Shown here: one piece after another, positions 1-45,479 of the stretch
Position numbering within the stretch: the stretch's first letter is position 1
How the letters are laid out: each line of letters opens with the position of its first letter
Assembly: GCA_963713955.1 (NCBI GenBank)
Contig: OY970216.1
Coordinates: 8,075-72,074, forward strand
DNA: 64,000 nucleotides
Direction of reading: 5' to 3'
Origin: an uncultured bacterium
GTDB lineage: Bacteria > Patescibacteriota > Minisyncoccia > UBA6257 > GWB1-50-10
Program-made: the position numbers and the translations under genes
The notes under the pieces: model-generated
Database searches by the model: none
Seen by the model: only the letters and a program-made list of their open reading frames with translations
Told to the model about the DNA's origin: nothing

Positions 1-207
1 GCTTCCAATAATTGTATATTTAATTTTACCTGCACCTTCCCTCAGCTGTTTTTTATAAACGCTGGCACCAGATTCAGATGTGTATATAATTTGGGACATA
101 TGATCAAATTTACTCAAATATCTGACTATCTCAACCAATGATCTCTCACCGCCAGAAATATTGGGCGAAGTATGGGAAAGTGCGACGTGATGGATTACGG
201 TTTTCAT
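1..207 (-). CDS. glycosyltransferase, N-terminal fragment (GT4-like); the gene continues past the window start
   Basis: Minus-strand ATG at 205-207 forms an ATGA overlap with the stop of the next ORF. The translation begins MKTVIHHVALSHTSPNISGGERSLVEIVRYL, which resembles the GT-B glycine-rich N-terminus. Confidence 0.4.
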   Translation of the reverse strand, partial: MKTVIHHVALSHTSPNISGGERSLVEIVRYLSKFDHMSQIIYTSESGASVYKKQLREGAGKIKYTIIGS

Positions 208-1313
208 ATTTTGATCCGTTCTGCGACCTTTTTAAAAATCACTTCCCATTCGTACGTAGATAGTACTTTCTTTTTTTCTGCAATGTTAAAATGAAAACGC
301 AGCAATCTGTCTTCCAATGACTCAGACAATTCCCCGAAGGAGCTGTATATTATGCCGAATTTTTTAAGTTCTTCGGGAATATAAGCCGTACTATTGGTTA
401 TATATGGTAAGTTATAATTTAAATACTCTTTTACTTTAAGGCTATCCCCGTAATATACGTGATCACCGGTATTGCCACCAAAGAAATAGGGTGCGATGCC
501 AAATAATTTTTTTTCGATTTTATCAAGAAAATCTTTGATTTCCTGTTGATTTTTATAACCAAGGTACTTAATTTTATCAGACAAGTTACGTTCTTTTATA
601 ATTTCCCGCAAATTAGCCGACATTTCGCCGCTACCGATAATATATAAGCTGACAGAACAATGATTTTTAATATAAAAATAATTCAAGAAATCAACGATAC
701 CATGTTGTTTAGTAATTGAACCCATATATAAAAAAGCTACCTCTCCGAAACCAGAAAAGTCTTTTTGAAACTCGATCGGTTTAACGCCGTTAGTAATGTT
801 GACGGTATTTTCTTCTTTTAGACCATGGAACTTCTGTCGAGCCATAGCCTGCCGGGGAGATTGGTTGATAGTCAAAATTGAATACTTGCAGGCCAAAGTC
901 TCGGAAAGGAGATAAAGTCCATTGAGGGCCTGGTTTAAAAATCTTTTTCTTGAATAATCAACTCCCCAGAAATAAACATTCCTCTTCAGTTGCTTTTCAA
1001 AAAAGATGAAAGGGGCAACATTAAAACTTCCAAAGGAAATAATTTTATCAATTTGCCTTCCGAGCTTAATCGACACCATCATTGAAACACAAAAGTTCTT
1101 ACAAAGATTCAGTATCTCATTATTGATCTTTTTATATCTTTTCAAAATGGCATCTTGACCACCGGAATAAAAAACTAACTCCGAAAATTTAGAATCGGCA
1201 GAAAAGAAAGGGTGCTTTAGGACAAAAAAACTTTTCTTTTGTTCCTTCAGATAATCGATAAAAAAATCCGTCACTCCTCGACACTCTGTAAAATGAGAAA
1301 CGATTAGCATCAT
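204..1313 (-). CDS. GT-B fold glycosyltransferase (group 1 / GT4-like)
   Basis: 369-aa ORF with a GT-B-like layout, sitting in a cluster of glycosyltransferases. Confidence 0.5.
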   Translation of the reverse strand: MMLIVSHFTECRGVTDFFIDYLKEQKKSFFVLKHPFFSADSKFSELVFYSGGQDAILKRYKKINNEILNLCKNFCVSMMVSIKLGRQIDKIISFGSFNVAPFIFFEKQLKRNVYFWGVDYSRKRFLNQALNGLYLLSETLACKYSILTINQSPRQAMARQKFHGLKEENTVNITNGVKPIEFQKDFSGFGEVAFLYMGSITKQHGIVDFLNYFYIKNHCSVSLYIIGSGEMSANLREIIKERNLSDKIKYLGYKNQQEIKDFLDKIEKKLFGIAPYFFGGNTGDHVYYGDSLKVKEYLNYNLPYITNSTAYIPEELKKFGIIYSSFGELSESLEDRLLRFHFNIAEKKKVLSTYEWEVIFKKVAERIKI

Positions 1314-1344
1314 TTTCTTCTTGGGATAGGTTAGATTGACGCGT

Positions 1345-2196
1345 TCACGCTGCTCTGTTTTTACTTATTAAATATCCCACCCCGCCGACGACAAACTCAC
1401 AGGTTTTCATAAAGAGCATTCCAAGGCCGATAGGCGGATTTTTGAAAAGTTTGATAGGGTGAGCGAAAAACAACATATATCGCGCCGGAGTACTAATCTG
1501 CTCTGCCGCAAATACCTCACTTTTATTCGCGTCTTTGTATAGATGAAAGTTTTTTGCATAATAAAATTTCTTTTTAATGGTCTTAGCGAGACTAATCTTC
1601 CCTTCGTTATGGTAAATAAAATTGCTGATCCTAATAATTCTTCCTCCTTTCTTCACCCTCTGTGACAAATCCCAATCCTCGCCACTTATCATCGCCTCGT
1701 TATATCCCCCGCTTTTACTAAAAATCTCCTTTTTAAAAAACCTGGCCGCCTCCATCCAGTCCACTCCCACATAAAAACTTCTCTCTAATTTTTTGCACTT
1801 AGCCCAAAATCCTTCGCCGAACGACTCCTCGGGGATTGCAATGGCCACCGCACGCGAATCGCTCCGTATTTTTTCAACACATTCGAAAACTATCTTCTTG
1901 GATAGTTCCATATCACTGTCAATGAATAATACATATTCCCCACTCGCCTGCGCTGCCCCAAAATTTCTCTGGGCGCTTCTCTCCGGTCCTTCATTAAAAA
2001 CTTTGTCGGTATATTTTTTGGCAATTTCTTTGGTATTGTCGGTACTGTTATTATCAATAACTATCAACTCAGTACTTTCATATGTCTGATTTTCTATGGA
2101 TTTTAAACACGCGTCAAGCGTTCTTGAAGAATTTTTGGTCGGAATGATAACGGAAACCAATGGATTTGTCGTCATATAACCTGTGAATGTAGACAC
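1345..2196 (-). CDS. family 2 glycosyltransferase
   Basis: N-terminus VSVIIPTKNSSRTLDACLKSIENQTY...ELIVIDNNSTDNT is the GT2 (GT-A) signature. Confidence 0.7.
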   Translation of the reverse strand: MSTFTGYMTTNPLVSVIIPTKNSSRTLDACLKSIENQTYESTELIVIDNNSTDNTKEIAKKYTDKVFNEGPERSAQRNFGAAQASGEYVLFIDSDMELSKKIVFECVEKIRSDSRAVAIAIPEESFGEGFWAKCKKLERSFYVGVDWMEAARFFKKEIFSKSGGYNEAMISGEDWDLSQRVKKGGRIIRISNFIYHNEGKISLAKTIKKKFYYAKNFHLYKDANKSEVFAAEQISTPARYMLFFAHPIKLFKNPPIGLGMLFMKTCEFVVGGVGYLISKNRAA

Positions 2197-2218
2197 GTTT
2201 TAAGGTCTCAGTGCCATA

Positions 2219-2947
2219 TTAGGGCAATGGCCTTATTTTCCACTTTTTTAGATATTCTTCCACTTCGTCCCATTTTTCCTTTGTGTCGACGCCTTTTGAA
2301 TAATCGCCAGATTCATAACCATAGAACTTTTCATGATGCCGAAGAAGATTCGGCAGAAGATCCTTCCCTATCTCATAATACAAGTCATCTGGAATATAAG
2401 AAAGTATCCTTTTCTTCAGAATAAATACACCCCGCATACGATGCGCATTCACATATTTCTCAGGATGAGGTTTCGGATGAATGGCAATGAATTCTCCCTT
2501 TTGGCTGATTTCCGCCACATCAGCGTCAGCATAGTTCTCTGTTTTCTGCACGAGCTGTATCCCGACGGCATCTTTCTTTCCATGCCATGCTTTTTCCATT
2601 GCCCTATAATCGACGAGGCTAAAGACGTCTCCATAAATCAAAAAAAAACTCTGGTCAAGATTCTTAAACGCCTTAAGTGCCCCGGCCGTCCCCAAGATCT
2701 CCGGCTCAAAATGATAGTTAATCTTCACGCCCCACGATGCACCATCTCCAAAATAATCTTTGATAACGTCAGGTAAATAGTGGAGGTTGATAAAAAATTC
2801 TTGGATGCCGTATTTTTTAAATTGCAAAATATTCCATTCAAGCATCGGCTTGCTGAGAATCGGGATCATGACTTTCGGCATCGTATCGGTATAGGGCTGC
2901 AGCCGCGTCCCTAATCCAGCGCAAAGGATAACGGCTTGCTTGATCAT
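2219..2947 (-). CDS. sugar-phosphate nucleotidyltransferase, probably D-glycero-D-manno-heptose 1-phosphate guanylyltransferase (HddC-like)
   Basis: N-terminus AVILCAGLGTRLQPYTDTMPKVMIPI is the nucleotidyltransferase G-x-G-T-R-L motif; the gene lies directly beside gmhB and gmhA. Confidence 0.6.
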   Translation of the reverse strand: MIKQAVILCAGLGTRLQPYTDTMPKVMIPILSKPMLEWNILQFKKYGIQEFFINLHYLPDVIKDYFGDGASWGVKINYHFEPEILGTAGALKAFKNLDQSFFLIYGDVFSLVDYRAMEKAWHGKKDAVGIQLVQKTENYADADVAEISQKGEFIAIHPKPHPEKYVNAHRMRGVFILKKRILSYIPDDLYYEIGKDLLPNLLRHHEKFYGYESGDYSKGVDTKEKWDEVEEYLKKWKIRPLP

Positions 2948-3579
2948 CGTTGTTTTTCTCTTTGTATGATTTTTACGGCTCGTCGGAGATCCTGCGCGAT
3001 AAAATTTGGCGTACCTTCATAGTGCCATAGGTCACTGCCGCCATGTCCGGTTCTCACGAGGATCATGCTCACCCCGGCACGATTGCCGGCAAGGACATCC
3101 CGCGTGCTATCGCCCACAAGAAAGCTCCTTTTTAAATCTATGCCGAGATCCTTCGCCGCGGCGAAGATCATACCTGGTGCTGGTTTGCGACAACCGCAAA
3201 CCATCCTATATTTTTTGATGTTCGCCTGCGGATGATGAGGGCAATAGTAGAAAGCATCGATCCGCGCGCCACGGCCAGCAAGGCGCCGGAAGATAAGCTC
3301 ATGCACGGCATCCACGTCGGCAGGCGTCGCCATACCCCGCGCGACAACCGGTTGATTGGTCGCAACAACTACCGCATAGCCAAGATCGTTAATTGTTTTG
3401 ATCGCCTGAACGGCACCCGAAAGTAGACGCACCCCCGAGGGCGAGCAGAGTAACTCGACCTGCTGGATGATCGTTCCGTCCCGGTCCAAAAAGACCGCAG
3501 GACGTTTCACTTTCCTGTTACGGATTCCCACTTTCCTTTCTGCGTCTGGAATTTTGGATGTGAAACAATGAGATGCCAT
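2944..3579 (-). CDS. gmhB: D,D-heptose 1,7-bisphosphate phosphatase (HAD-IIIA, GmhB-like)
   Basis: Motifs FLDRDGT, VVATNQ and the GmhB Zn-finger CxH...CxCRKP. The first ATG (3648) overlaps gmhA, so the internal ATG at 3579 or a later non-ATG start is more likely. Confidence 0.65.
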   Translation of the reverse strand: MASHCFTSKIPDAERKVGIRNRKVKRPAVFLDRDGTIIQQVELLCSPSGVRLLSGAVQAIKTINDLGYAVVVATNQPVVARGMATPADVDAVHELIFRRLAGRGARIDAFYYCPHHPQANIKKYRMVCGCRKPAPGMIFAAAKDLGIDLKRSFLVGDSTRDVLAGNRAGVSMILVRTGHGGSDLWHYEGTPNFIAQDLRRAVKIIQREKQR

Positions 3580-4115
3580 ATGACTGCTTGAAATTCCTCC
3601 GTATGTGGCGTCACGGTTTCCGGACTCACGACCGGCACGATCACACACACATCGGCAACTTGTTTGGTATAGCCACCGTCGCGACCGACGACCCCCATTA
3701 TTTTAGCATGTTTCTTTTTTGCTAATTTTAAGGCTTCCACGATATTCAGGCTGATGTTTTTCTCCGAATCACCGCCGCCGACCGAAAACACCAATACCGC
3801 GTCTCTTTCATTCAAATGACTGCCAATGAGCCAATTGGAAAAGATGGTATGCCATCCATCATCATTCGCCCGGGCCGTAAGCTCAGAAACATTATCAACG
3901 GGCGTATAAGTCTCGATAGCGGTAAGTTTTCGGAAATCGTTCACCGCATGGCTTGCATGCCCCGCACCGCCGCCGATCCCTATGACAAAAAGGCGCCCCT
4001 GTTTCTCGCGGACATCCGCGAGGACGTTGATCATTTGGTTCACCGCGTCATGATCGATCTTTCCCGCGATTTCGCCAACTTCCTTGAAGTACGACGCGAT
4101 ATAATCTTTATACAT
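3507..4115 (-). CDS. gmhA: phosphoheptose isomerase (SIS domain, GmhA-like)
   Basis: SIS-domain motifs GRLFVIGIGGGAGHASH and VFSVGGGDSEKNISL. Confidence 0.7.
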   Translation of the reverse strand: MYKDYIASYFKEVGEIAGKIDHDAVNQMINVLADVREKQGRLFVIGIGGGAGHASHAVNDFRKLTAIETYTPVDNVSELTARANDDGWHTIFSNWLIGSHLNERDAVLVFSVGGGDSEKNISLNIVEALKLAKKKHAKIMGVVGRDGGYTKQVADVCVIVPVVSPETVTPHTEEFQAVIWHLIVSHPKFQTQKGKWESVTGK

Positions 4116-4117
4116 AG

Positions 4118-4837
4118 TTATAATTTATATCCTGCCTTTTGTCCGTCATCGTAGAACATCTTCACGGTATCCACCGAAAAATCCTCGAGCGGATAACCGG
4201 CCTTCCCCACCTTCTTCAGGAGGTCCGGTGTCACTGTAATAATGTCCGATCCCGCCTCTTCCGCATGGAAAATGTTCAAGAACTCGCGGGGGCTCGCCCA
4301 CAGAAGTTCAAACTTCGGATATGCCACGAGAAGCGATTTCGCCTCCTTCATTAAAGGAAGCGGATCGACACCCGTATCCGCAATCCTGCCCGCGAAGACG
4401 GAGATGATCGCCGGGATTTCGGGCGAGAGCGACGTGACCGTTCCCCTTACTTGGTCTATGGTAAAAACCGCCGTGACGTTCATTTTCACGCCATCGGTCG
4501 CCAAACGCTTGATGAGACTGTAGGATGGTTCCCGTTTTGTATTGGTGATCGGAATCTTCACATACACATTGTCACCCCATGAAGCGATGAGGCGCGCCTG
4601 TCGCTCCATCTCCCCAAAATCGTCGGAGAACACCTCGAACGATATTGGTCGGTCCTTGATCATGGAAAGGATGTCCTTCGCAAAACCAGCATAATCGGTA
4701 ATGCCCGCCCTACACATCAGAGTCGGATTCGTTGTGAAACCCCTGATATACGGCCGCGTAGCCATATCCAACATGCTCGCTTTTTCCGCGCAGTCAGCAA
4801 ATATTTTTATTCGTAATTCTTCAAATTTCTTAGCCAC
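4118..4837 (-). CDS. transaldolase / fructose-6-phosphate aldolase family protein; candidate sedoheptulose-7-P supplier
   Basis: TIM-barrel transaldolase-like motifs (TTNPTL, catalytic-Lys region VKIP), sitting in the heptose cluster. Confidence 0.6.
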   Translation of the reverse strand: MAKKFEELRIKIFADCAEKASMLDMATRPYIRGFTTNPTLMCRAGITDYAGFAKDILSMIKDRPISFEVFSDDFGEMERQARLIASWGDNVYVKIPITNTKREPSYSLIKRLATDGVKMNVTAVFTIDQVRGTVTSLSPEIPAIISVFAGRIADTGVDPLPLMKEAKSLLVAYPKFELLWASPREFLNIFHAEEAGSDIITVTPDLLKKVGKAGYPLEDFSVDTVKMFYDDGQKAGYKL

Positions 4838-4865
4838 ATCTTTATTATAATACTCACGGACTATT

Positions 4866-6890
4866 TTAAATATGACTGTTCGGTCTGTAATCCTGTTCTA
4901 TCCTTGACCGTAGATTCAGACCAGTAGAAACGCTGGTAATGATCTTGCCTGACAAAACCGAATAACAGCCGAAACCGTGGCTCGTAACGGTGGTAGGCCG
5001 GGCATCACTCAGGGACGACGAAGATTCAACTGGTAGAGTTATATACATTGAACCGAAATACCGCGCTTGTTTTAATATGGGGAACCATATAAGACATCTC
5101 TCCAGCATCTTCGGCCACTTCGTTTTTACTCCACTTCTCCATTTTTCAAAAGCATGGTTATCAAATCTGGAGACTTTTTTACGCACAGAAAGAGGTACGT
5201 CGCCGAAAGTATATCTATTACCATGCCCAGTCGGAACCAGTGTGGCGAATGGGCCATCCATAATGGTTACCGCGCATTTCTGGGGTCCATCGATATCGAG
5301 CAAAACGAGCTCTTTGAATCTATACTGGAGATCCTTCAATGGAAAGCCTAACCATTGGCAAAAGACATTGTAATCCGCGTATGTTGCGTTTATTACAATG
5401 TCATAGTCGCCGTGACCTTTTTGTCCGTTTTTATTTATCCATTCCAATCTCTTTCGGCCATCGGGCAAAAACTTGGCCGAAGTGACCTCGTGTCCCAAAT
5501 GTACGTTTAATTTAGGCATACCCTTCATCCTTTTTTTGATTAAGGACTTCAAGGCTTCATAATCGTAAATTTGCTCGCCGGTCTTTACTGAAACCGAGAC
5601 GGTGTTTCGATTCAAGAACCCAGCGGGCGGATATCCTTCCGTAAATTTTAACCCCATACTTTTGCAGGTTCTCAAAAATTGTTCTGGTGATGTATATGAA
5701 CCTCGGTTAGGCACACAGTAGTAACTCGGGAAATTACCTACGACAATACTTCGGTAAAAGCTCTCAAAGTTTTTAGTGGCCGACTTTATTTCTTCGATAG
5801 TCTTAAGACTTCTGGGGTAATGAAAACCTTGATGATGGCGATATTGATTAGCATAGGAAGCTTTTTTAAGGATGTCTTCCTCCCGCTCAAAAAGATCAAC
5901 CTCGAATTTTTCTGCTAATATTAAACCTGCAGTTGCCCCAAAAATTCCGCCGCCGATTATGGCCACTTTGGGTTTGTCTTTTTTTATCACGCTTGCCCGC
6001 TCGGCGACACCAGTAACCCTGACGACATCCCGCGCGCCGATGACGATTCTTCCGCCATTAACCTCGTTAATAAAAGTGTGGAGTTCGTCTTCTAGGGGTT
6101 CCGTCCATATTTTGATTATTTTTCGTTTAGAACCGTTCCGATCTTCTGTTGTAACTATAGATAAAGCAAAATCAGCAGTAATTTTGGTCACTAAACCGTT
6201 CTTTTTAGAAACAAATGTTAAGGATCGGATCTTCTCTCCTGCCCGCCACCCAATTGTAAGGTCAACGTTTAAATTCGGAGCATATCGCATTTCGACCCTC
6301 GTTAAACTGTCAGAACCAGCAGAATGAACGACTTCGGGTTCCTTGCCAATTAAAAAATCTAAAATATCAAAAAGGTGTAATTCCTCAAAAGAAGCCTTAT
6401 CTCCCCTCTTATACGTTTCAGAAGGACTGATAAATTGGCCGGAGACCGAGACGATGTGACTGACGTCTAATGTCTTTTTTAAAAATTTGGTCACGGGATG
6501 AAACCTATAAATATGCCCCGCCATGAGAACCTTCTTATTCTTTAATGCCAGATCATAAAGATAATTAGCTTCGCTCGGACTAAATGCCAATGGCTTTTCG
6601 ACAAAAACATGAGCTTGCTTTAAAGCGGCTCTGGCCAAGTTCTGATGTGTCTCCCCTGGCGTGACTATATCGACAGCATCAACCCCAATAAAAAGATCGG
6701 TTCTCACCCCACGATAGACTGGTATAGATAATTCTTTTGACAATTCTTCCTGAGCCCTCCTGCTTTTCACAACCACTCCGACCAATCTTAGAAGTCCGTT
6801 CCTATCCAACTTCTGAAGCACTCTTAGGTGGTTTTCCCCAAACTGGCCCGCCCCTATCAATAGCACCCTAGGAATCAGTTTATTTGACAT
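4866..6890 (-). CDS. fusion oxidoreductase: N-terminal Gfo/Idh/MocA-family domain plus C-terminal FAD/NAD(P)-binding oxidoreductase
   Basis: N-terminal VLLIGAGQFG Rossmann fold and the EKP motif (VEKPLA); from about residue 330, KPKVAIIGGGIFGATAG is a second dinucleotide-binding fold typical of FAD-dependent oxidoreductases. The start is taken at MSNKLIP (6890) to avoid overlap with the kinase gene. Confidence 0.55.
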   Translation of the reverse strand: MSNKLIPRVLLIGAGQFGENHLRVLQKLDRNGLLRLVGVVVKSRRAQEELSKELSIPVYRGVRTDLFIGVDAVDIVTPGETHQNLARAALKQAHVFVEKPLAFSPSEANYLYDLALKNKKVLMAGHIYRFHPVTKFLKKTLDVSHIVSVSGQFISPSETYKRGDKASFEELHLFDILDFLIGKEPEVVHSAGSDSLTRVEMRYAPNLNVDLTIGWRAGEKIRSLTFVSKKNGLVTKITADFALSIVTTEDRNGSKRKIIKIWTEPLEDELHTFINEVNGGRIVIGARDVVRVTGVAERASVIKKDKPKVAIIGGGIFGATAGLILAEKFEVDLFEREEDILKKASYANQYRHHQGFHYPRSLKTIEEIKSATKNFESFYRSIVVGNFPSYYCVPNRGSYTSPEQFLRTCKSMGLKFTEGYPPAGFLNRNTVSVSVKTGEQIYDYEALKSLIKKRMKGMPKLNVHLGHEVTSAKFLPDGRKRLEWINKNGQKGHGDYDIVINATYADYNVFCQWLGFPLKDLQYRFKELVLLDIDGPQKCAVTIMDGPFATLVPTGHGNRYTFGDVPLSVRKKVSRFDNHAFEKWRSGVKTKWPKMLERCLIWFPILKQARYFGSMYITLPVESSSSLSDARPTTVTSHGFGCYSVLSGKIITSVSTGLNLRSRIEQDYRPNSHI

Positions 6891-6912
6891 TAGTAATAAT
6901 ATCTTTGCTATT

Positions 6913-7899
6913 TTAAAAATCAGTGACAACTTTTGATCCCTCAAAATCGAAACGATACCGCATTTCCCTTAAACCAAAATTGCGCATTGTTTCCCTGGTG
7001 TTCTTTTGATCACCGGGAACATAAAAGGTGAAGAATCCTCCACCGCCAGCCCCAGAGATTTTGCCACCCAAGGCACCGCTCTGCAGGGCTGAGGCATATA
7101 TCTTGTCGAATATCGGGTTTGACATCTTTGTTGATATCTTCTTTTTGTATTGCCAGTGTTCATCAAACATCTTGCCGATGGCGTCAATATTGCCGGCCTC
7201 CGCTGCTTCAAGGATCTTATAGCCAAGCTCTTTGATAAAATGCATACTCTCCACCACGTCCTTCTTTTTCTCTTTTACACCGCTTGATTGTTCTTGCAAG
7301 ATTTCGTCGGCACTTCGTGTCTGTCCGGTAAAAAAAACGAGAAGGTTGTTATTGAGATTATCGGCCGTTTCCATGGAGATGTTCGCCTTGCGGATATTCA
7401 CTTTCCCGTTCTTCTCGATATCGAGAACCGTTAGCCCGCCGAATGCAGCCATGTACGGATCTTGTTTTCCGATGGGACGTTTTAAAAGCTCTGCCTCAAT
7501 ATGAAAATCTTCTTCCGCCAGTTGATCAAGCGATACATACTCTCGCCTGAGCGTATGAAGCGTATGTAAAAGACCGACCGTGTAACAGCTTGACGAACCG
7601 AGACCTGTTCCTCCGGGGATATCCGATATGGAGCTAATCTCAATATTCTTTTTTATGCCTAAATATTGCAATACTTTCTTAGCAAGATCGTTTTTTAGTT
7701 CATCCGCACTTTTTACGGTTTCTGCTTTGGAATATTTCAGCCGGACTAAATCGTCCGCAACCGAACGATTTGCATCAATAAACATATACTTATTGATCCC
7801 TGCGGAAAAAATAAAACCGCCGTATTTTTTATAATACGCCGGCAAATCGGTGCCACCGCCACCCAATGTTATTCGGAACGGAGTTCGTGTGACAATCAT
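6913..7899 (-). CDS. GHMP-family sugar kinase, probably D-glycero-D-manno-heptose 7-phosphate kinase (HddA-like)
   Basis: GHMP motif PGGTGLGSSSCYTVGLL, within the heptose pathway cluster. Confidence 0.6.
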   Translation of the reverse strand: MIVTRTPFRITLGGGGTDLPAYYKKYGGFIFSAGINKYMFIDANRSVADDLVRLKYSKAETVKSADELKNDLAKKVLQYLGIKKNIEISSISDIPGGTGLGSSSCYTVGLLHTLHTLRREYVSLDQLAEEDFHIEAELLKRPIGKQDPYMAAFGGLTVLDIEKNGKVNIRKANISMETADNLNNNLLVFFTGQTRSADEILQEQSSGVKEKKKDVVESMHFIKELGYKILEAAEAGNIDAIGKMFDEHWQYKKKISTKMSNPIFDKIYASALQSGALGGKISGAGGGGFFTFYVPGDQKNTRETMRNFGLREMRYRFDFEGSKVVTDF

Positions 7900-7905
7900 A
7901 TCTCT

Positions 7906-8961
7906 TTATAAATTTATTCTGCTCATAACCTGACTTGTTTCTATTTTACCGATTCCACTATTCAGCCCTTTCGGCACTACTCTCTTCAGATCGTATCGGT
8001 ACCACGGCTTGAAGTTTTCCGGACGCACCAAGGTAACCAAATCCCTATCATAGGGCAGACTCCATTTATCATTCGTCGAAGCCCACAAAGTCACTATTTT
8101 CTTCCCCAAGGCAACGGCCAGGTGGCCGAATCCGTTATCGTTACAGATAAGCATTTCAACTTGGTCCAGAACTCCCAAGGATTGGCCGAAGCTGATATCC
8201 TGTAACAGATGGCAGTTGTCTTTATCGTTTACCAACTGAGACAACCTGCTCCCCAGATCAATCTCGTCGGGACCCACGAAAATGAGTACCTTCTTCTTTT
8301 TTTCGCTTATCAGAAACTTCGCGACCTCGGCATACCTCTCGACCGGCCAGCGCCTAAGAAGCGCCGCCGGGGAATTCGTGGAGCCGGGATGAATTCCGAT
8401 TATGCTCCGGTTCTCCCAGCCCAAGTTTTTCACGTACTCTTTCCCGAATTCCACATCTTCTTTGTCGAGAGACAGATCATATCTTATATTTTCTTTCTTG
8501 ATCTCCGTTTCCCAAGATATCCCTAGAGCCTTCAATAAATTCAAGTTATTAATCACGTTGTGCTCGTTCTCGTCGACTTCAATCAAGTCGGTATTCAACC
8601 AATGCAATTCGGTGAAGTAGCCGCTCTTGAACCGATGAGCTATCCTCTTTTTCGCTCCAGCCAAGAAGTGAACGAGATGATACTCCCGCCGGTAGCATGG
8701 GAAAGCCAGGATGGAAACGTCGTACTTCTTTTTACGCAACTTGAGTGTTTGCATCAGCCCTTTCAATTTATTCTCGCCGTAAAGCGAGAGTCTATAAATA
8801 TCGTTAATGTTCGGATTGTTTTTAAAAACATATTCCACGCCGCCGAGCATACAGGCCACGTCGATTTCCGCGCCGGGTAGTTTTTCTTTCAAAAGCTTCA
8901 CCATCGGCGTCGCCATCAGGGAATCCCCTATTCCGGGTAGGCAAAAGACCAGAATTTTCAT
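7906..8961 (-). CDS. family 9 glycosyltransferase (heptosyltransferase-like)
   Basis: N-terminus MKILVFCLPGIGDSLMATPMV is the GT9 (ADP-heptose:LPS heptosyltransferase family) signature. Confidence 0.6.
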   Translation of the reverse strand: MKILVFCLPGIGDSLMATPMVKLLKEKLPGAEIDVACMLGGVEYVFKNNPNINDIYRLSLYGENKLKGLMQTLKLRKKKYDVSILAFPCYRREYHLVHFLAGAKKRIAHRFKSGYFTELHWLNTDLIEVDENEHNVINNLNLLKALGISWETEIKKENIRYDLSLDKEDVEFGKEYVKNLGWENRSIIGIHPGSTNSPAALLRRWPVERYAEVAKFLISEKKKKVLIFVGPDEIDLGSRLSQLVNDKDNCHLLQDISFGQSLGVLDQVEMLICNDNGFGHLAVALGKKIVTLWASTNDKWSLPYDRDLVTLVRPENFKPWYRYDLKRVVPKGLNSGIGKIETSQVMSRINL

Positions 8962-9917: not shown

Positions 9918-9923
9918 ACATAA

Positions 9924-11174
9924 TTAAAATAACAACAGGCCGCCGATAAGTAAAGCCACGAGTTGCGCCACGGTCATTATTAAAAGCATTGAAGGGATGC
10001 TCTGCCCAGCGAGAAATATCGCGATTGTCGTCAAAGCAGCGATCACGAGAAAAACATAAGAGATCTTTGTCTTATGAATTGAGAGCGCGTATTGCAAAAC
10101 CAGATTGGCCAAGGAAAAAAGCGAGGCGGCGATAGCAAAGAATCCCAGATAAAAACCGACGTTTTCATATTTGTTTCCGAATAAAAGACTGAGAACTAGT
10201 TTGGGATCAGCGAAATAAACGAGCGTCGCCACGAGAGAAACGATGAGAGTGGCAAGAAAGGCGTCTTTGAAAATACGGGAAGAGCTGATACCTTTGTGTT
10301 TGTTTTCGGCCGACATCGAAAAAAGAACGGTGGCGACGACGCCAGTCGCAAAGAAAATAATTTTGGAAACGACCGACAGAGCTCCGTACTGACCCGCTGC
10401 GAGAGAACTGAGATTATGCTTGGCTAAAACCACGTCGACATTCCCCAAAAAACTGATCGCCAAACTCCCCGCAAAAACGGCGGCGACGTAACTTTTCATT
10501 CCCAGAAAAGCGTCGATGCTTTTACGCGGAGAATCATTATTTTGCCTGCGCAAGATGAATCTGATGACAACAACGGACGCAACGTAGGAAATCACCCCAC
10601 CCAATAAAATACTCCCTATTATTCCCCCCAAGGCGAAACCAATCTTTATAAGCACGAATGCCGCTGCCAATTTCACTATCGCACCATAAACGCCTACCAA
10701 ACCTACATCCTTGAACTTCTGCCAGCCACTAAGTATCCCGGAATTCACTGCCCCCAAAAGAGAAAGAAATATAAGAATCCAAACCTCTATCAGCGGGAAA
10801 CCGCTCGACAGATTGAAGAAATATTTCAAATAAGGCGTGAAAACTATGCCGGCGAAAAGGAGCGGCAAGCCGTAAATCAAAACCTTACCGTTGAAATACC
10901 TCAGGATTTCCCTCACGCCCTCCGAGTTGCCGGCCGCTTTGCATTTGGCGGCATAATTCGTGGCTACCAGGGTCAGGGTGGCCGCCGGGACTGATATTAT
11001 GTTTATGAGAGATATGAGAGATTCAGCTTCACCGTACACCTCGACGCTCACCATCCTCCCGACCATCAGATGGAAAAGATAATTGAGGATATTGACCGAC
11101 GCGGTTCCCAGAAAAAGAACCAGGCTATTTTTAACAAAAGTGCTGTTTTTTAGGTAACTTAGAGCTTCCTTCAT
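9924..11174 (-). CDS. MOP-superfamily oligosaccharide flippase (Wzx-like polysaccharide biosynthesis protein)
   Basis: 416-aa polytopic membrane protein placed at the head of the glycosyltransferase operon. Confidence 0.5.
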   Translation of the reverse strand: MKEALSYLKNSTFVKNSLVLFLGTASVNILNYLFHLMVGRMVSVEVYGEAESLISLINIISVPAATLTLVATNYAAKCKAAGNSEGVREILRYFNGKVLIYGLPLLFAGIVFTPYLKYFFNLSSGFPLIEVWILIFLSLLGAVNSGILSGWQKFKDVGLVGVYGAIVKLAAAFVLIKIGFALGGIIGSILLGGVISYVASVVVIRFILRRQNNDSPRKSIDAFLGMKSYVAAVFAGSLAISFLGNVDVVLAKHNLSSLAAGQYGALSVVSKIIFFATGVVATVLFSMSAENKHKGISSSRIFKDAFLATLIVSLVATLVYFADPKLVLSLLFGNKYENVGFYLGFFAIAASLFSLANLVLQYALSIHKTKISYVFLVIAALTTIAIFLAGQSIPSMLLIMTVAQLVALLIGGLLLF

Positions 11175-11467
11175 TGCTTGTCTTTGTTTAAAATCCCGTT
11201 CACGGCGGATAGTAAATCATGAAAATACACCATGTCTCTGTCGCCACCGAACTCAAAGATAATCCTATAATCACTGTTTATGGAAAAAGCCCAGAATAAA
11301 CTCAACCTTCCATGGAGCTTATGAGTTTCCAGTTCAGGGTTAAACGGATTCTTTCTGAACAGCACCTCAGCTTTCTCGGCAGCAGCCTTCACCTCTTTGG
11401 GAAGCTTCTTATATTTTCTCGCGAACTGAGTCGAGTAAATTATTTTCATGCCCCTCCTTAATGGCAC
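11171..11467 (-). CDS. type II toxin, RelE/ParE family
   Basis: 98-aa basic protein abutting an RHH antitoxin gene; its C-terminal YRIIFEFGGDRDMVYFHDL resembles RelE/ParE. Confidence 0.5.
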   Translation of the reverse strand: MPLRRGMKIIYSTQFARKYKKLPKEVKAAAEKAEVLFRKNPFNPELETHKLHGRLSLFWAFSINSDYRIIFEFGGDRDMVYFHDLLSAVNGILNKDKQ

Positions 11468-11683
11468 TTATCTCAAGCTCTTCAGGGAACGGAGCGTTTT
11501 GCCCTTCCCCGCTAACATTTCAGCCTGACTTACTCTGATTTCTCTTAAAAGTTTTTCCTCTTCCCACAGGCGAAGCAAATCCCTAAAAAATTCACTCTTC
11601 GTGGCATAACCACCTTCCTTTACCTCTTTACTGACCTTATTATGCAATTCCTCGGGAAGGGATATGTTTATGATTTTTCTCAT
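11468..11683 (-). CDS. ribbon-helix-helix (CopG/ParD-like) antitoxin
   Basis: MRKIINISLPEELHNKVSKEVKEGGYATKSEFFRDLLRLWEE has the RHH fold pattern. The internal ATG at 11683 was chosen as the start. Confidence 0.5.
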   Translation of the reverse strand: MRKIINISLPEELHNKVSKEVKEGGYATKSEFFRDLLRLWEEEKLLREIRVSQAEMLAGKGKTLRSLKSLR

Positions 11684-11751
11684 ACTTTCAAGTGTAATAC
11701 AAAGTATTACAAAGTCAAGCTCCCGAGCGCCTTCAGTGCTCGGGAGGCGGT

Positions 11752-11812
11752 TATCCCCCAAAATATGGCCTCCCGCTCTCGATAGATCCGCCAGCTGGCG
11801 GAGTGGATAACT
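11752..11812. repeat. GGCCTCCCGCTCTC palindromic repeat family, copy 1
   Basis: GGTTATCCCCCAAAATATGGCCTCCCGCTCTCGATAG with neighbouring CTCCCGAGC/GCTCGGGAG and CCGCCAGCTGGCGG palindromes; closely similar to the sequence at 32176-32238. Confidence 0.5.
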
Positions 11813-11856
11813 TTGAAGATTGCCGAAGTTCTTATTGTTGATATAATACAAGCACC

Positions 11857-12681: not shown

Positions 12682-15600
12682 CTAGTTGGCCAAGTTGGTC
12701 AAGAGAGGTCCCGGAATCGGCAGAGTCACGCTTGCCGGCAATACCGTCAAGCTCTGCGAGGAGCCATCGCTCCACGTTACGCTCTGCACCGAGATCTGAT
12801 ACGTACCGTTGTTGTTCGTCGCCGACGTCGTGTCAGAAACCGCAGTTATCTGACCGATGATCGTGCGAGTCGCACCGCTCGGTACATCCCATCCTGAAGT
12901 CACACTGCTGCTGCCGAGATCAACCGACGAAGTGGCTGTGCTGCTGAGCGTCGTCGTCCCGAGGATTATTGAAGGATTCAACGAATCGAAGAACTTCAAT
13001 GAGATCGACGTCGTAGCGTTCACGATTGAGCCTCCTTCGGAGACCACCAATTTCTGAACGTAGACATCGTTTCCACCCGCGGTCGCACCGACGTTCATGG
13101 CAAACACATTCTGGCCGACACCGGTCGCAGCGATCTGCGAAACCGTTCCCGCACCGATCGACGCAACCAAAGCCCGGTAGACGGTTATGTTGTTACCCGC
13201 GGCGGCAAGAGCCCCAACATTCGTTGAAGACGCGCCTGTCGCGAGATTAACAACATAGTTCGTAACCTGGAATGAATGCGTGGTTGCCTCAGATGTCGTC
13301 GCGTTGTTGTAAGCAACGGCATTACCCGTCAAGCTTACCGTCGCATACCCGTTCTGCGGAATCGAGATCGGCGTACCGAAGACGAAGGTCGCCGTACCAG
13401 AAGCGTTCAACGACTGCTGAGTGTTCAGCGTTTGTCCGCCGTACACCAAGCCGAACGTGTTGAAGGCGCTCAGGTTACCGTTCACCGTCGTCGTAGCAGA
13501 GCTCGCGGCATCCTTGACCGTCATCTGAGTGACCGTGACGGGGCCGGATGCGCTACCGTTCAAGCGGAAGATGGCCAACGTGTTGTTGGCTATACCCATA
13601 CCCATGGCGGTCGCGGCAGGAGACGTCGGATCAAGCGAAACGCCCGCCAACACATTACCCTGCGATATCGCGACGGACTGACCAGTGACGGCCGTTCCGT
13701 TTTCACCGCTCGCGGTAAGAGTCACCGCATTGTTCCCGGCTGTCGCGCTTATCGACGCCAAGTCAGCCAAGACTTTCGATGCCGTCGAGGCACCGTTCGA
13801 AACGGAAGCATAGACGTTCACAATCACCGATGAATTCACGGCAACCGTGACCGGCGAAGAACCGCTGAAGGTGTACTGACCGCTCGGCGTGACGTTCCCC
13901 TGGGTTTGACCCATCGGGGTGCCGTTCACCGTTATGTAGAGGTTAGACAACCAACCTGACGTAACGCCCGAAGGAATCGCGATCGAGACGCCGCTCAGAA
14001 GGACGGGGTTCACCTGTCCGGACTGAAGGACGAAAGACGCAATCTGCGAAGCCGACGAACCGGCCATCACGACCGGATTCCCGAAGGAACCGTTCTGGTA
14101 AGCCGTCATGTTCGAGGCATTCGCGAGAACCTGAAGAACCGGAGACGTCTGCGCGGTCGGGCCGACCGTCACATAATTGGACTGTGACTGACCGGTCAGA
14201 GACACGGTGACGCCGATGCTCGAACCGCTCGATACGCCGCTCCCCACGCTGCCCTGAACCATCAAGGCCTGGGTCGTGTTCGCGGGTATGATGTAGTTCA
14301 AGTTGCTGAAGGTTACCGATCCGCCGCTCCCAATCGTCTCGTTCTGCGTGGTACCCAACTGGGCACCGCCGAGCAGTACCTGGACGTTATTGAGCGAACT
14401 TGTCGCAACGCCCGTTCCATTGATCGTCAAGGTCATCGAGGTTAAGCGGATGCTGTCACCCGACGCCAAGACGCTGAATTGTCCAAGACTTGCATTGGTA
14501 TTCCCGGCCACAACATAAAGCGCCGTGGACGAGGCTGCGTTAACCACTAATCCACCTTGGGCTACCGTTACGTAGTTCAGGTTCTGAGCGCTGAATCCAG
14601 TCCCGCCACTGATCGTGGCGCCAATGCTAACATTGTACATGTTATCAATGGCTTGTATGTCAGACGTTTGCTGAACGGTGAACTGGAAGTAATATCCGAC
14701 ACCGCCCGTCACGTCGGCATAGAGCTGAAGCGTCGCGGCCTGACCCGCCGAGAGCATCAAAGGCGCGCTCGAAAGATCGAAGTACGCCACGTTGCTCGTC
14801 AAGGAAGGCAAGGTCGGACCCACCTGGGTTCCGCCGTTCACGAGTTTCACGTTCTGGACGTACTGGGTCGGTAAGGAACCAGTCATCGTGAAGCGTAAGC
14901 TCGTGACCTTCACCGGGTCATTGCCGGCGGTCAACGTGAATTGACCGATGACGTTATTCGTCTGCCCGGCATTGATGGTCGTGGAAGCGGTTGTTGTCTG
15001 GAAGGTCAAGGTAGCGAGGTTCGTCACCGAAACCAACGACATATTGTTCCCCATCACGGGGTACGTTCCGCCAACCGTAGCGGTCGCTTGGACGTCAGAC
15101 GCCGAAGCCACTGCGAAGTTGATCACATGGCTCGCGATCGACGAGACGTTGGCGATGTCAGCCTTAACCCAAATCTCCACCGTGGAATTCGCGGGGACCG
15201 TGAAAAGTCCGGAACCGCTCGCGAACATTATCTTGCCGTTGGAGATGCTCTGGTTGATCGCAAGACGAGTGCCTCCTTGATAGAGGTAAACGTTCTGCAG
15301 ATCGGCATCTTGCGACAAGCCGCTCCTCGTGATCGCGAAGGAATTCACCGTCACCGGCTGAGAGCCGGCCGTGAAGTTCAAGGCGAGCATCGGGGTGGCG
15401 ACGGCGCCGATCGCGACGTTGCCGCCCACAGGACTATCGGAAGCGGTGCTTACGACTAATCCCGTTCCCACAGGAACGATAACATTAGTCCCCGTACCGG
15501 TTCCGGTACCAACCATCGTGCCCTCCATCGCGTTAACGGCCTTCATGGTTATGGGGCCGAAGTAACCCGCGGCTGGAGAAATACTACTTGCAGCTTGGAA

Positions 15601-43925: not shown

Positions 43926-43940
43926 TATTTTTCTACACTG

Positions 43941-43969
43941 TTTGACATTATTGCTATATTATGGTATCA
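43941..43969 (+). promoter_or_regulatory. sigma70-like promoter upstream of the DGR target gene
   Basis: TTGACA, a 17-nt spacer, then TATCAT. AAGGAGG lies 5 nt before the ATG at 44038. Confidence 0.4.
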
Positions 43970-44037
43970 TATCAACATTCCTGAAACTTAGGAACGCATC
44001 TAAAAAACTTCATATTCACTAACCAAGAAAGGAGGCA

Positions 44038-44919: not shown

Positions 44920-44992
44920 TCGAACATTGCACCTCGGACACTTGAACCTTTTGATGTCTTGTCCTTCGTTCCTTTCGTCCGCGTTATTTTTG

Positions 44993-45034
44993 AGAGGTTA
45001 TCCACACCATTGTGGGTAACCTCTTTATTTTTTA
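44993..45034 (+). terminator. hairpin plus T-run downstream of the VR/target gene
   Basis: AGAGGTTATCCACA-CCAT-TGTGGGTAACCTCT (14-bp stem with 1 mismatch) then TTTATTTTTTA. The stem contains a perfect TTATCCACA. Confidence 0.55.
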
Positions 45035-45430: not shown

Positions 45431-45446
45431 CGCTCCTCAAGGAGGC

Positions 45447-45477
45447 AGAATGCCCGCGATTTATACGCGGGCATTCT
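45447..45477. terminator. strong hairpin between the TR and the avd stop (bidirectional terminator or TR-RNA 3' structure)
   Basis: AGAATGCCCGCG-ATTTATA-CGCGGGCATTCT, a 12-bp perfect stem. Confidence 0.5.
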
Positions 45478-45479
45478 CC

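Follow-up and report, generated by a model that had tools for sequence, protein, structure and literature searches.

Heptoses are activated along two described routes: GDP-D-glycero-alpha-D-manno-heptose is made by GmhA, HddA/WcbL, GmhB and HddC in Aneurinibacillus thermoaerophilus, Campylobacter jejuni and Burkholderia pseudomallei, while the ADP-heptose pathway (GmhA, HldA/HldE, GmhB, HldC) works with the GT9 enzymes WaaC/WaaF. The lincosamide pathway leads to a GDP-octose through LmbR, LmbN, LmbP, LmbK and LmbO, followed by LmbL/LmbZ/LmbM/LmbS. A fourth group of relevance is formed by the polyprenyl-phosphate systems (GtrA/B/C, ArnC/ArnT, PgfS/PgfM, GacI-L and the archaeal AglJ type). For the anomeric configuration produced by each of the two heptose routes we rely on PMC4691232; functions, lengths and families of the Lmb and Ccb proteins are from PMC4351081 and its supplement.

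The window analysed here, a DNA stretch of 64,000 nucleotides, carries a group of genes related to these systems. All genes named in a first-pass annotation were confirmed, with their minus-strand orientation and coordinates (Table 1). In our best explanation, favoured on balance, a self-contained heptose-type NDP-sugar cassette is embedded in a single co-directional, low-GC operon for surface-glycan assembly, which would cover positions 204-11174 and about 5 kb past the left edge, within a Patescibacteria (CPR) genome. Adjacent starts and stops overlap or fall a few bases apart across the cassette, in an operon-like fashion, and gene order is identical on two independent assemblies. The annotated genes are indeed tightly packed, although a 692-aa ORF between transaldolase and kinase had been overlooked. 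The operon is also longer than originally described, from a Wzx-like flippase to a 715-aa polytopic membrane protein located about 5 kb beyond the window, and is bracketed by toxin-antitoxin pairs on both sides. Its GC content ranges from 37 to 49%, being 37% at positions 1-2196. The host had been described as CPR-like, in agreement with the closest kinase and GT9 homologues, which belong to Liptonbacteria, Paceibacterota, Minisyncoccia, Taylorbacteria and Microgenomates, and with a source contig of 804,691 bp. No LPS-related genes were seen within the window.

Table 1. Features of the glycan operon and of its surroundings, with the matches obtained in profile searches.
Feature	Position	Strand	Evidence or remark
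GT4 (Glycos_transf_1) glycosyltransferase	204..1313	-	PF00534; lowest GC of operon
GT2 glycosyltransferase (GT2b)	1345..2196	-	PF00535 97.6 bits; conserved GT2a-GT9-GT2b core of other CPR clusters
Sugar-1-phosphate nucleotidyltransferase (predicted last step, NDP-sugar)	2219..2947	-	NTP_transferase PF00483 81 bits
HAD-IIIA phosphatase, GmhB-like	2944..3510	-	NF006506 158.6 bits (cut-off 178); TIGR01656 129.8 (>84)
SIS-domain ketose-phosphate isomerase, divergent GmhA relative	3507..4115	-	TIGR00441 55 bits (cut-off 209)
Transaldolase, TIGR02134 (Staphylococcus-type) subfamily	4118..4837	-	TIGR02134 312 bits (cut-off 282)
Fusion oxidoreductase, 692 aa	4866..6944	-	Gfo/Idh/MocA PF01408 79 bits; PF01266 31 bits
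GHMP sugar-1-kinase, heptose-7-phosphate kinase (HddA/WcbL) type	6913..7899	-	NCBIfam HddA 157 bits, best match
GT9 glycosyltransferase (inverting GT-B), probable heptosyltransferase	7906..8961	-	PF01075 75 bits; TIGR02195 93 (cut-off 134.6)
GT2a, polyprenyl-phosphate glycosyltransferase (GtrB/ArnC/PgfS-like), C-terminal membrane helices	8958..9917	-	PgfS, ArnC models
Wzx-type multi-pass flippase (Polysacc_synt), first operon gene	9924..11174	-	PF01943 38 bits (>28.2)
RelE/YafQ-like toxin and RHH antitoxin	11171..11851	-	Right border of low-GC glycan operon
Secreted Ser/Thr/Ala/Gly-rich protein, 1095 aa, peptidoglycan-binding domain	12682..15969	-	PF01471 43 bits
MNT/HepT pair	outside window		Other operon border

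Evaluation against curated equivalog models revealed that the transaldolase passes its cut-off, while the other four cassette enzymes fall below theirs (GmhA, 55 vs 209 bits; HddA, 157 vs 600; GmhB, 159 vs 178; HddC, 81 vs 300); isomerase, kinase, phosphatase and nucleotidyltransferase classify, by sequence, as heptose-pathway-like yet divergent. The best solved relatives of the kinase are heptose-7-phosphate kinases (PDB 3k85, 4e-40; WcbL, 2e-38; 4n3o, about 1e-37 to 1e-36), and the catalytic Arg and Asp of WcbL, R13 and D163, are matched in the alignment by its R9 and D147. Galactokinase models reach 25-37 bits only, and the assignment to the heptose rather than the galacto type is upheld. 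About 8000 homologues were detected, the best 120 being mostly 70-77% identical; by family precedent, the product would be an alpha-1-phosphate. The SIS protein scores 24.3 bits against PF13580 (<27) and matches GmhA structures in PDB at 4e-9. Compared with GmhA, it keeps the metal/catalytic His and the C-terminal His, has Asp for Glu68 and Glu for Gln175, and its phosphate loop is extended by an insertion of 6 aa. CPR genomes with the ADP route, in contrast, encode an orthodox GmhA (220 bits). The phosphatase, 188-195 aa long according to gene callers (a longer ORF with a GTG start, extending to 3648, runs into the SIS gene), has the terminal (7-) phosphate of a sugar 1,7-bisphosphate as its predicted target. 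The nucleotidyltransferase had been described as an HddC-like guanylyltransferase, a label not borne out by the matches: the NCBIfam models Arch_glmU (114 bits), ManC(Rv) (103) and MurU (97) all outscore HddC, and the PDB match to UDP-glucose pyrophosphorylase (8x7s, 1e-32) precedes that to HddC (5xhw, 1e-14). Because of these better matches, GDP as the nucleotide is not established.

The overlooked ORF encodes an N-terminal Gfo/Idh/MocA NAD(P) dehydrogenase (aa ~25-310) fused to a C-terminal DAO/GlpD-type FAD enzyme (aa ~320-690). The AF2 model of the latter (pLDDT 93.8) confidently shows a GlpD/glycine-oxidase fold, the best Foldseek matches being glycine oxidase 4ysh, GlpD 2qcu and MQO 9dm1 (E~1e-19). 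Searches for homologues of the fusion yielded 215 cluster representatives at E<=1e-30, and it recurs beside a GHMP kinase or whole cassettes in three further contexts (L156, L158 and L159/L160). It may be a sugar-tailoring (redox/epimerisation) module and, because it would tailor the sugar by oxidation/reduction, the cassette product is probably a modified sugar, not plain D-glycero-D-manno-heptose.

Conservation of the cassette was evaluated on 48 usable loci, out of 68 fetched, with kinase identities of 60-77%. Kinase, transaldolase, SIS isomerase, HAD phosphatase and nucleotidyltransferase recur together, usually with two oxidoreductases: transaldolase and SIS proteins are present in 46 loci each, HAD in 45, nucleotidyltransferase in 44, SDR in 41 and Gfo in 39, while a 435-aa NDP-sugar dehydrogenase is found in 20. 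With all five enzymes found again in 44-46 of the 48 loci, their arrangement is far beyond chance. The loci span CPR, Acidobacteriaceae, and Planctomycetota and other phyla, across which the SIS protein is 53-80% identical (kinase identity of at least 60%); the cassette is a widely shared unit, not peculiar to the source genome. An Acidobacteriaceae cassette is contained within a Wzz/Wzy/Wzi capsule cluster, and would therefore feed a surface polysaccharide there. Of the full GDP-D-glycero-alpha-D-manno-heptose pathway initially proposed, a heptose-type sugar-nucleotide enzyme set is thus present; the plain GDP-heptose is disfavoured as product, the redox module being nearly constant in the cassette and the nucleotidyltransferase nearer to non-heptose enzymes.

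The transaldolase is found in none of the ADP-route loci, and belongs, among cassette variants, to two subfamilies, the TIGR02134 type and the FSA/TalC type. We know of no characterised GDP-heptose cluster containing a transaldolase, and a full-text literature search found none; its near-universal presence in the cassette suggests that the ketose substrate may be another one. Since the constant transaldolase and its partner enzymes parallel those of the lincosamide route to GDP-octose, an NDP-octose or some other higher-carbon sugar has to be considered as product. The transaldolase would join a C3 unit to ribose-5-phosphate, giving octulose-8-phosphate (LmbR), to be isomerised by the SIS protein (LmbN) and converted by kinase, phosphatase and nucleotidyltransferase (LmbP, LmbK, LmbO) to an NDP-octose, tailored by dehydrogenases (LmbL, LmbZ). 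The five families match the Lmb set, and relatives of the cassette also carry the 435-aa dehydrogenase and Gfo/Idh/MocA enzymes counted above. In a comparison by family, length and function, the SIS protein resembles in length CcbN, of 202 aa; CcbP has 323 aa, CcbK 185, and CcbL is a 436-aa NDP-sugar dehydrogenase (PMC4351081). Outside the lincosamide pathways, the nearest homologues of CcbK, CcbO and CcbZ are reported to be acidobacterial (PMC4351081), and Acidobacteria also carry the cassette. The distance of the SIS protein from orthodox GmhA points the same way, as does the constancy of the transaldolase even in diderm phyla, which are expected to hold a full pentose-phosphate pathway. However, both transaldolase types serve, and a generic activity fits as well as a specialised one; the core transferase of the cluster that holds the window cassette is heptose-linked in other genomes; and free-standing octoses are, to our knowledge, without precedent in cell-surface glycans, where heptoses are common. 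An octose is therefore considered unlikely, and a heptose-type sugar is retained.

The GT9 protein has 3tov and WaaF 1psw as PDB matches and contains the motif G10-I-G-D13. Most of its orthologues in other CPR adjoin genes of the ADP-beta-heptose route: the gene set lies immediately upstream of orthologues of at least 50% identity in 8 distinct contexts, and in one case the orthologue and an HldC-like adenylyltransferase form a single fused protein. Because of this association, GT9 is very probably a heptosyltransferase, as previously suggested, although its ancestral donor was probably ADP-beta-heptose, anomerically opposite to the cassette product. The first-pass annotation had GT9 use that product; the GHMP-type cassette would have displaced the ADP-heptose genes, and GT9 would form beta-linked heptose from NDP-alpha-heptose. 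GT9 and kinase lie 6 bp apart within one operon, the closest GT9 relatives have in their cluster the ADP-heptose genes which the window lacks, and no HldC-GmhB protein from the source contig (804,691 bp) appears among the best 120 of 5335 matches. Against this, every GT9 orthologue context with heptose genes carries the beta-configured ADP route, and GT9 is absent from all cassette loci, both the 48 usable and the 68 fetched, the window being the sole hybrid among the loci compared. With respect to the consensus (at least 80%) of 19 orthologues, GT9 shows a single conservative departure, W121 instead of F, and so gives no indication that its donor has changed. Three GT9 clusters (L073, L077, L079) likewise have no adjacent heptose genes; heptose supply can therefore be encoded elsewhere. 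We know of no GT9 enzyme using GDP-alpha-heptose, and none was found in a literature search. Displacement is hence a tentative reading, and it appears somewhat more likely that the cassette feeds another transferase of the operon, rather than replacing the ADP-heptose supply of GT9. As a member of a retaining family, the GT4 enzyme of Table 1 is a candidate for using an NDP-sugar of alpha configuration.

The surroundings of GT9 are conserved in other CPR clusters. GT2a orthologues, 54-60% identical, are located upstream of GT9 in L072, L073, L076, L077 and L079, and GT2b orthologues, 53-58% identical, directly downstream in L077 and L079. Both junctions of this core can receive a heptose-synthesis module. 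In L076, ADP-route genes separate GT2a from GT9, whereas in the window it is GT9 and GT2b that have a module, the GHMP cassette, between them. The flippase occupies an equivalent position in L072 and L073, and a Wzx-GT2a-GT9-...-GT/methyltransferase-large membrane protein scaffold is common to L072, L073 and L075. GT2a scores 220.6 bits with the PgfS model and 138.6 with ArnC, both below cut-offs, and is the putative initiating enzyme, producing a lipid-linked first sugar.

From these assignments we infer the following order of steps. The transaldolase, as source of the ketose phosphate, would produce most likely sedoheptulose-7-phosphate from fructose-6-phosphate and erythrose-4-phosphate; the GmhA-like isomerase would convert it to an aldose 7-phosphate, the kinase would phosphorylate C1, giving the alpha anomer, the phosphatase would remove the terminal phosphate, and the nucleotidyltransferase would generate an NDP-alpha-heptose, GDP being suggested by analogy only. 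The fusion protein would tailor the sugar, e.g. by epimerisation. The glycan would be begun on polyprenyl phosphate by GT2a, lengthened by GT9, GT2b and two GT4 enzymes, and then methylated; given several soluble transferases and a methyltransferase, the glycan is more likely to be an oligosaccharide than a single sugar. The Wzx protein would flip it, and the 715-aa membrane protein, with a faint GT-C_AftD match (E 0.36), may pass it to an extracytoplasmic acceptor. None of the genes of this glycan system was recognised as coding for a phosphoglycosyl transferase, a polymerase or an oligosaccharyltransferase.

The neighbouring 1095-aa surface protein had been indicated as acceptor, to be decorated with heptose by S-layer-type O- or N-glycosylation. 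It is secreted, contains 25% Ser+Thr and lies 1.5 kb from the operon; S-layer glycans of Aneurinibacillus are built with GDP-heptose; and PgfS, which GT2a resembles, is part of a protein-glycosylation system. Its gene, however, has a GC content of 57%, is divided from the low-GC operon by the toxin-antitoxin pair and small ORFs, and is on present evidence outside it. No homologue occurs near about 150 related loci, except for one match to the peptidoglycan-binding domain, and an oligosaccharyltransferase was not recognised. This acceptor is accordingly regarded as quite improbable.

In comparison with the known systems, the cassette shares with the GDP-heptose pathway its four clustered enzyme families, a kinase nearest to WcbL, 3k85 and 4n3o, and the probable supply of a surface glycan instead of an LPS core; unlike it, the cassette includes transaldolase and redox module as integral parts, has SIS, kinase and nucleotidyltransferase proteins far below curated equivalog scores, and travels as a unit across phyla. 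With the ADP-heptose system the GT9 fold and D13-type motif are shared, and GT9 orthologues of other CPR adjoin a near-orthodox GmhA, an HldA-like kinase and HldC-GmhB, or are fused to HldC; the window, in contrast, is devoid of ADP-route genes, and the acceptor would be a polyprenyl-linked sugar, no lipid A acceptor being known to us in CPR. The lincosamide pathway is similar in enzyme families, including the unusual transaldolase, in the dehydrogenase and Gfo/Idh/MocA enzymes of cassette relatives and, compared by description, in protein lengths; its aminotransferase, carrier protein and antibiotic-assembly genes are missing from the window, where the setting is a glycosyltransferase/flippase operon. 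Like the polyprenyl-phosphate systems, finally, the operon combines a membrane-anchored GtrB/ArnC/PgfS-like GT2 with a flippase and, at its end, a large polytopic membrane protein, here devoid of significant family matches; unlike them, it adds soluble GT9, GT2 and two GT4 transferases and a methyltransferase.

Eleven genes, all read from the minus strand and with starts and stops that overlap or are separated by only a few bases, occupy positions 204-11174 of the window. They are listed in the table below from the promoter-proximal end, with the families assigned to them by using Pfam and NCBIfam profile models. The arrangement is identical on two independent assemblies, from which it is also seen that the operon goes on beyond the window's left edge with another GT4 gene, a methyltransferase gene and a gene for a 715-aa polytopic membrane protein. 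The genes named in the first-pass annotation are real and lie where it had placed them; the fusion gene in the middle of the operon had been missed, and the operon is larger than had been described. A MNT/HepT toxin-antitoxin pair lies past the 715-aa membrane protein gene (15612-16231 of L071), and a RelE/YafQ plus RHH pair marks the other border (window 11171-11851). GC content is 37-49% in the operon and 50-57% in the remainder of the window. The presence of toxin-antitoxin pairs on both sides, together with the lower GC of the glycan operon, fits the expectation for an acquired island.

Coordinates of the operon genes and of related genes in the compared loci
Feature	Sequence	Coordinates	Strand	Basis
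Wzx-type flippase	window	9924-11174	-	Pfam/NCBIfam
GtrB/ArnC/PgfS-like polyprenyl-phosphate GT2 (GT2a)	window	8958-9917	-	Pfam/NCBIfam
GT9	window	7906-8961	-	Pfam/NCBIfam
GHMP kinase	window	6913-7899	-	Pfam/NCBIfam
Gfo/Idh/MocA + FAD-oxidoreductase fusion, 692 aa	window	4866-6944	-	Pfam/NCBIfam
Transaldolase	window	4118-4837	-	Pfam/NCBIfam
SIS protein	window	3507-4115	-	Pfam/NCBIfam
HAD-IIIA phosphatase	window	2944-3510	-	Pfam/NCBIfam
NTP_transferase	window	2219-2947	-	Pfam/NCBIfam
GT2 (GT2b)	window	1345-2196	-	Pfam/NCBIfam
GT4	window	204-1313	-	Pfam/NCBIfam
HldC-containing fusion (to GT9)	L072	10001-11554		
HldC-containing fusion (to GmhB)	L075	7939-8967		
HldC-containing fusion (to GmhB)	L076	2764-3765		
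GT2 preceding Gfo/FAD fusion	L156	1373-2299		
GT2 preceding Gfo/FAD fusion	L157	1100-2026		
GT2 preceding Gfo/FAD fusion	L158	9094-10008		
GT2 preceding Gfo/FAD fusion	L159	8814-9536		

The genome had been judged CPR-like, which agrees with its small size and with the closest named relatives of the kinase and the GT9 (Liptonbacteria, Paceibacterota, Minisyncoccia, Taylorbacteria, Microgenomates); ribosomal markers are absent from the window, and the source contig measures 804,691 bp. No lpx-like genes were found among the window genes scanned against family libraries.

Outside the operon, two genes for TrwB/VirD4-like coupling proteins or HerA-like ATPases (42543-43925 and 50122-51420) and a large serine recombinase gene (52684-54390), ending beside a tRNA-Gly (54301-54372), give the region 42543-54390 the look of an integrated conjugative element. 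A match to the Rfam LOOT RNA (RF03000) was found at 48810-48928 on the minus strand, at 83 bits (gathering score 46). Within 10 bases of the window's right end, a minus-strand ORF (62126-63991) joins a histidine-phosphatase domain (aa 2-117) to a class-I tRNA-synthetase core and an anticodon-binding domain, and may be a genuine fusion or the result of a wrongly placed start.

The operon had been proposed to encode the GDP-D-glycero-alpha-D-manno-heptose pathway. Family scores and kinase relatives support a heptose-type sugar-nucleotide pathway, judged from sequence, and fall short of establishing GDP as the carrier or the exact sugar. Among the cassette enzymes, the curated equivalog cut-off is passed by the transaldolase only (TIGR02134, 312.2 vs 281.95 bits). 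HddA is the best family for the kinase, at a score (NF049969, 157 bits) well under the cut-off of 600; the top PDB matches are exclusively heptose-7-phosphate kinases (3k85, WcbL 4usk/4usm and 4n3o, with E values from 4e-40 to 1e-36), and in the alignment with WcbL, R9 and D147 take the places of the catalytic R13 and D163. Several homologues are named galactokinase at NCBI, a name left unsupported by the 25-37 bits obtained with galactokinase models, and this identity was rejected. The HAD phosphatase passes the HAD-IIIA and histidinol-phosphatase domain models and is slightly under the GmhB cut-offs (NF006506, 158.6 vs 178; TIGR00213, 123 vs 150). The SIS protein is distantly GmhA-like (PDB GmhA, about 4e-9) and falls short of the GmhA equivalog TIGR00441 (55 vs 209 bits), which the GmhA of a CPR locus encoding the ADP route passes with 220 bits; both metal/catalytic His residues are kept, while the catalytic Glu is replaced by Asp and Gln175 by Glu, and the phosphate loop carries a six-residue insertion. 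The label of HddC-like guanylyltransferase is not supported for the nucleotidyltransferase, which reaches 81 bits against a cut-off of 300 (NF049965), is scored higher by the Arch_glmU, mycobacterial ManC(Rv) and MurU models, and matches the UDP-glucose pyrophosphorylase 8x7s (1e-32) better than HddC (1e-14).

The cassette is not special to the window genome. About 8000 kinase homologues were detected at E<=1e-20; among the 120 best listed, one is near-identical (88%) and all others are 70-77% identical, those bearing a name being assigned to Liptonbacteria, Minisyncoccia, Paceibacterota or the Patescibacteria group. Scanning one genome for each species yielded 68 loci; those at 60-77% kinase identity include 39 from CPR or unlabelled MAGs, 5 from Acidobacteriaceae/Terracidiphilus MAGs and 11 from Pirellulales/Planctomycetota, Sedimentisphaerales, Aminicenantes, Deltaproteobacteria, Elusimicrobia and one PVC-group MAG. 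Genes within 10 kb of the kinase were counted in the 48 loci of this identity range with enough flank: a transaldolase and a SIS protein of the same divergent kind as in the window are each present in 46, the HAD phosphatase in 45, the nucleotidyltransferase in 44, a classical SDR in 41, a stand-alone Gfo/Idh/MocA gene in 39 and a NDP-sugar dehydrogenase in 20; neither the GT9 nor the Gfo/FAD fusion is found in any of them. The recurrence of a near-constant gene set across phyla identifies the five core enzymes and their redox pair as a mobile, strongly conserved module, evidently swapped between CPR and diderm soil bacteria. Mis-binning of CPR contigs as Acidobacteriaceae was rejected for one locus (L011, positions 1-20984, on a 393-kb contig), in which the cassette, lacking the redox pair, is placed amid a Wzz/Wzy_C/Wzi capsule cluster with GT4/GT2, Gmd, GDP-fucose-type epimerase and Fkp genes, Wzi being an outer-membrane protein. 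CPR and Acidobacteria have transaldolases of the TIGR02134 type, and the single Elusimicrobia cassette that was scanned (L047) has one of the FSA/TalC type; the transaldolases of Planctomycete-type cassettes are only about 30% identical to that of the window.

The redox module occurs as an SDR plus a Gfo enzyme in most relatives and as the fusion protein in the window. The N-terminal half of the latter is a Gfo/Idh/MocA NAD(P) dehydrogenase (PF01408, 79 bits). A weak NAD_binding_8 match had suggested a UDP-galactopyranose-mutase-like FAD domain; this was discarded, since the AlphaFold model of the C-terminal 378 residues (mean pLDDT 93.8) fits glycine oxidase, the glycerol-3-phosphate dehydrogenase GlpD and malate:quinone oxidoreductase (E about 1e-19, TM 0.7-0.77), and the domain is predicted to be a DAO/GlpD-type flavoenzyme. 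At E<=1e-30 the fusion family comprises 215 cluster representatives, of which about 40 are full-length. Three more contexts (L156, L158 and L159/L160) also have the fusion beside a GHMP kinase or the entire set of kinase, nucleotidyltransferase, HAD, SIS and transaldolase genes. A GT2 gene (240-308 aa) directly precedes the fusion and overlaps its start in all four contexts looked up outside the window (these three and L157), which may point to loading of the tailored sugar onto polyprenyl phosphate; two of these GT2s (L156, L158) resemble the GtrB-like GT2a, and L158 also has a GtrA-like gene upstream. As the redox module is nearly universal, the end product of the cassette is most likely an oxidised or reduced derivative, e.g. 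an epimer. Speculatively, the GlpD-like domain would oxidise the glycerol-phosphate-like C6-C7 tail of heptose-7-phosphate, and the Gfo domain would then re-reduce it, inverting C6.

The GT9 scores over the Pfam gathering threshold (PF01075, 75.4 vs 22 bits), matches 3tov and WaaF (1psw) in the PDB and remains under the equivalogs of LPS heptosyltransferases I, II and III (TIGR02195, 93 vs 134.6; TIGR02201, 81 vs 170; TIGR02193, 46 vs 185). About 100 homologues were found at 40-68% identity; nearly every one that carries a name comes from CPR (Taylorbacteria, Microgenomates, Roizmanbacteria). Orthologue contexts were collected by three look-ups and a metagenome scan. At a GT9 identity of at least 50%, a PfkB kinase gene lies directly upstream in eight distinct contexts (L075, L076, L080, L081/83, L084/85/89, L086, L088, L111); all except the short L111 contain a HldC-GmhB fusion, and three an orthodox GmhA. 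In L076, the ADP-route enzymes score 328 bits on rfaE_dom_I (cut-off 345), 152 on rfaE_dom_II (181.5), 174 on GmhB (178) and 220 on gmhA (209). The end of a HldC-GmhB gene is left at the contig edge in L090, and the orthologue P0128 of L072 is itself fused to a HldC-like domain. Three loci (L073, L077, L079) show GT2a-GT9-GT2b with no heptose genes within reach. Heptose-synthesis modules are inserted at differing junctions of a GT2a-GT9-GT2b core, genome by genome, and the window is the sole place found where this GT9 and the cassette meet.

These neighbourhoods and the HldC fusion link the GT9 subfamily to heptose, as had been proposed for the window enzyme; the route to which they link it is that of ADP-heptose and not that of the cassette. 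The ADP route leads to a beta-configured donor, while the GHMP/NTP_transferase route leads to an alpha-configured NDP-heptose (PMC4691232). The 64-kb window contains no PfkB or HldC genes, and the best 120 of 5335 homologues of the HldC-GmhB fusion, which is common in CPR genomes, include none from the 804,691-bp contig. Compared with the consensus (at least 80%) of 19 orthologues, the window GT9 has one deviating position, a conservative one. The cassette may have displaced the ADP route, the GT9 now using its product, a reading we hold to be possible and on the doubtful side. Somewhat likelier is that the GT9 retains an ADP-heptose supply encoded elsewhere, the cassette product going to the adjacent GT2 (inverting) or GT4 (retaining) enzymes. 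A literature search for GT9 enzymes using GDP-heptose and for heptosyltransferases in CPR returned nothing relevant.

A scaffold common, wholly or partly, to the window operon and to L072, L073 and L075 consists of Wzx, the GtrB/ArnC/PgfS-like GT2, the GT9, more GT2/GT4 and methyltransferase genes, and one or two membrane proteins of 700-730 aa with faint GT-C_AftD/DUF6541 signals; a family search with the 715-aa protein gave only a faint GT-C_AftD match. No gene was identified for a phosphoglycosyl transferase, a Wzy polymerase, an LCP ligase or a recognisable oligosaccharyltransferase. The scaffold suggests that an oligosaccharide would be assembled on polyprenyl monophosphate, flipped and then transferred outside the membrane, resembling Gtr/Arn/Pgf systems and archaeal AglJ-initiated glycans. 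The acceptor had been sought in a 1095-aa protein with a signal sequence, a PG_binding_1 domain and 25% Ser+Thr. Its gene lies beyond the toxin-antitoxin pair, outside the low-GC operon, and a synteny check revealed no counterpart beside any related locus, on which ground the protein was rejected as a conserved partner; its role as acceptor is possible but unsupported.

The lifestyle of CPR bacteria is one of attachment to host cells, and very little is known of the chemistry of their surface. Heptose genes of CPR are already annotated publicly, the JGI annotation of the kinase being D-glycero-alpha-D-manno-heptose-7-phosphate kinase, and a single sentence in one study assigns ADP-heptose biosynthesis among freshwater CPR to Paceibacteria only (PMC9166423). 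Studies dealing with heptose glycans or GT9 enzymes of CPR, or with the transaldolase-containing cassette, did not turn up in a literature search. Three points are new with respect to the literature found: CPR and diderm phyla share, with kinases 60-77% identical, a heptose-type cassette that includes a near-invariant transaldolase and a redox module; in bacteria that lack LPS, a subfamily of CPR GT9 enzymes is associated with the ADP-heptose route; and the window genome is a hybrid of the two. The operon and the thousands of related cassettes indicate that sugars of higher carbon number are common on the CPR surface and are apparently exchanged horizontally. ADP-heptose and related metabolites are innate-immune signals, which gives some wider relevance to the question of which heptose nucleotides CPR make.

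Only one characterised pathway has exactly the enzyme set of the cassette, on a comparison of described functions, families and lengths: octose formation in lincosamide biosynthesis, in which a later enzyme, LmbZ, is presumably of the Gfo/Idh/MocA type. The octose is formed by the transaldolase LmbR, the isomerase LmbN, the kinase LmbP and the phosphatase LmbK, the guanylyltransferase LmbO yields GDP-octose, and LmbL, LmbZ, LmbM and LmbS follow (PMC4351081, PMC12945683). CcbL is a NDP-sugar dehydrogenase of 436 aa, CcbN and CcbK measure 202 and 185 aa, and, outside lincosamide biosynthesis, CcbK, CcbO and CcbZ are reported to have their nearest homologues in Acidobacteria (PMC4351081 supplement).

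On this analogy, the cassette product might be an octose or another non-canonical sugar, which we consider unlikely. Joint encoding of transaldolase, SIS protein, GHMP kinase, HAD phosphatase and nucleotidyltransferase, as in the lincosamide case, speaks for it, as do the near-constancy of the transaldolase, also in diderm phyla, and its absence from CPR loci encoding the ADP route. Diderm phyla are expected to have a complete pentose-phosphate pathway. To our knowledge, characterised GDP-heptose clusters contain no transaldolase, and a full-text literature search for transaldolase genes in heptose clusters retrieved none. Against an octose, it is heptoses and not octoses that are common in surface glycans, the cassettes draw on two transaldolase subfamilies, and the window cassette sits within a heptosyltransferase-centred cluster.

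In a bolder reading, which we also consider unlikely, the lincosamide GDP-octose pathway would have its widespread primary-metabolism counterpart, and possibly its evolutionary source, in the transaldolase-containing cassette, with CPR, Acidobacteria, Planctomycetes and others displaying on their surfaces an eight-carbon or otherwise non-canonical, redox-tailored higher sugar. Were this true, the sugar would belong to a class so far unrecognised in cell-envelope glycans, and, if the product is an octose, an antibiotic pathway would be linked to a common envelope pathway.
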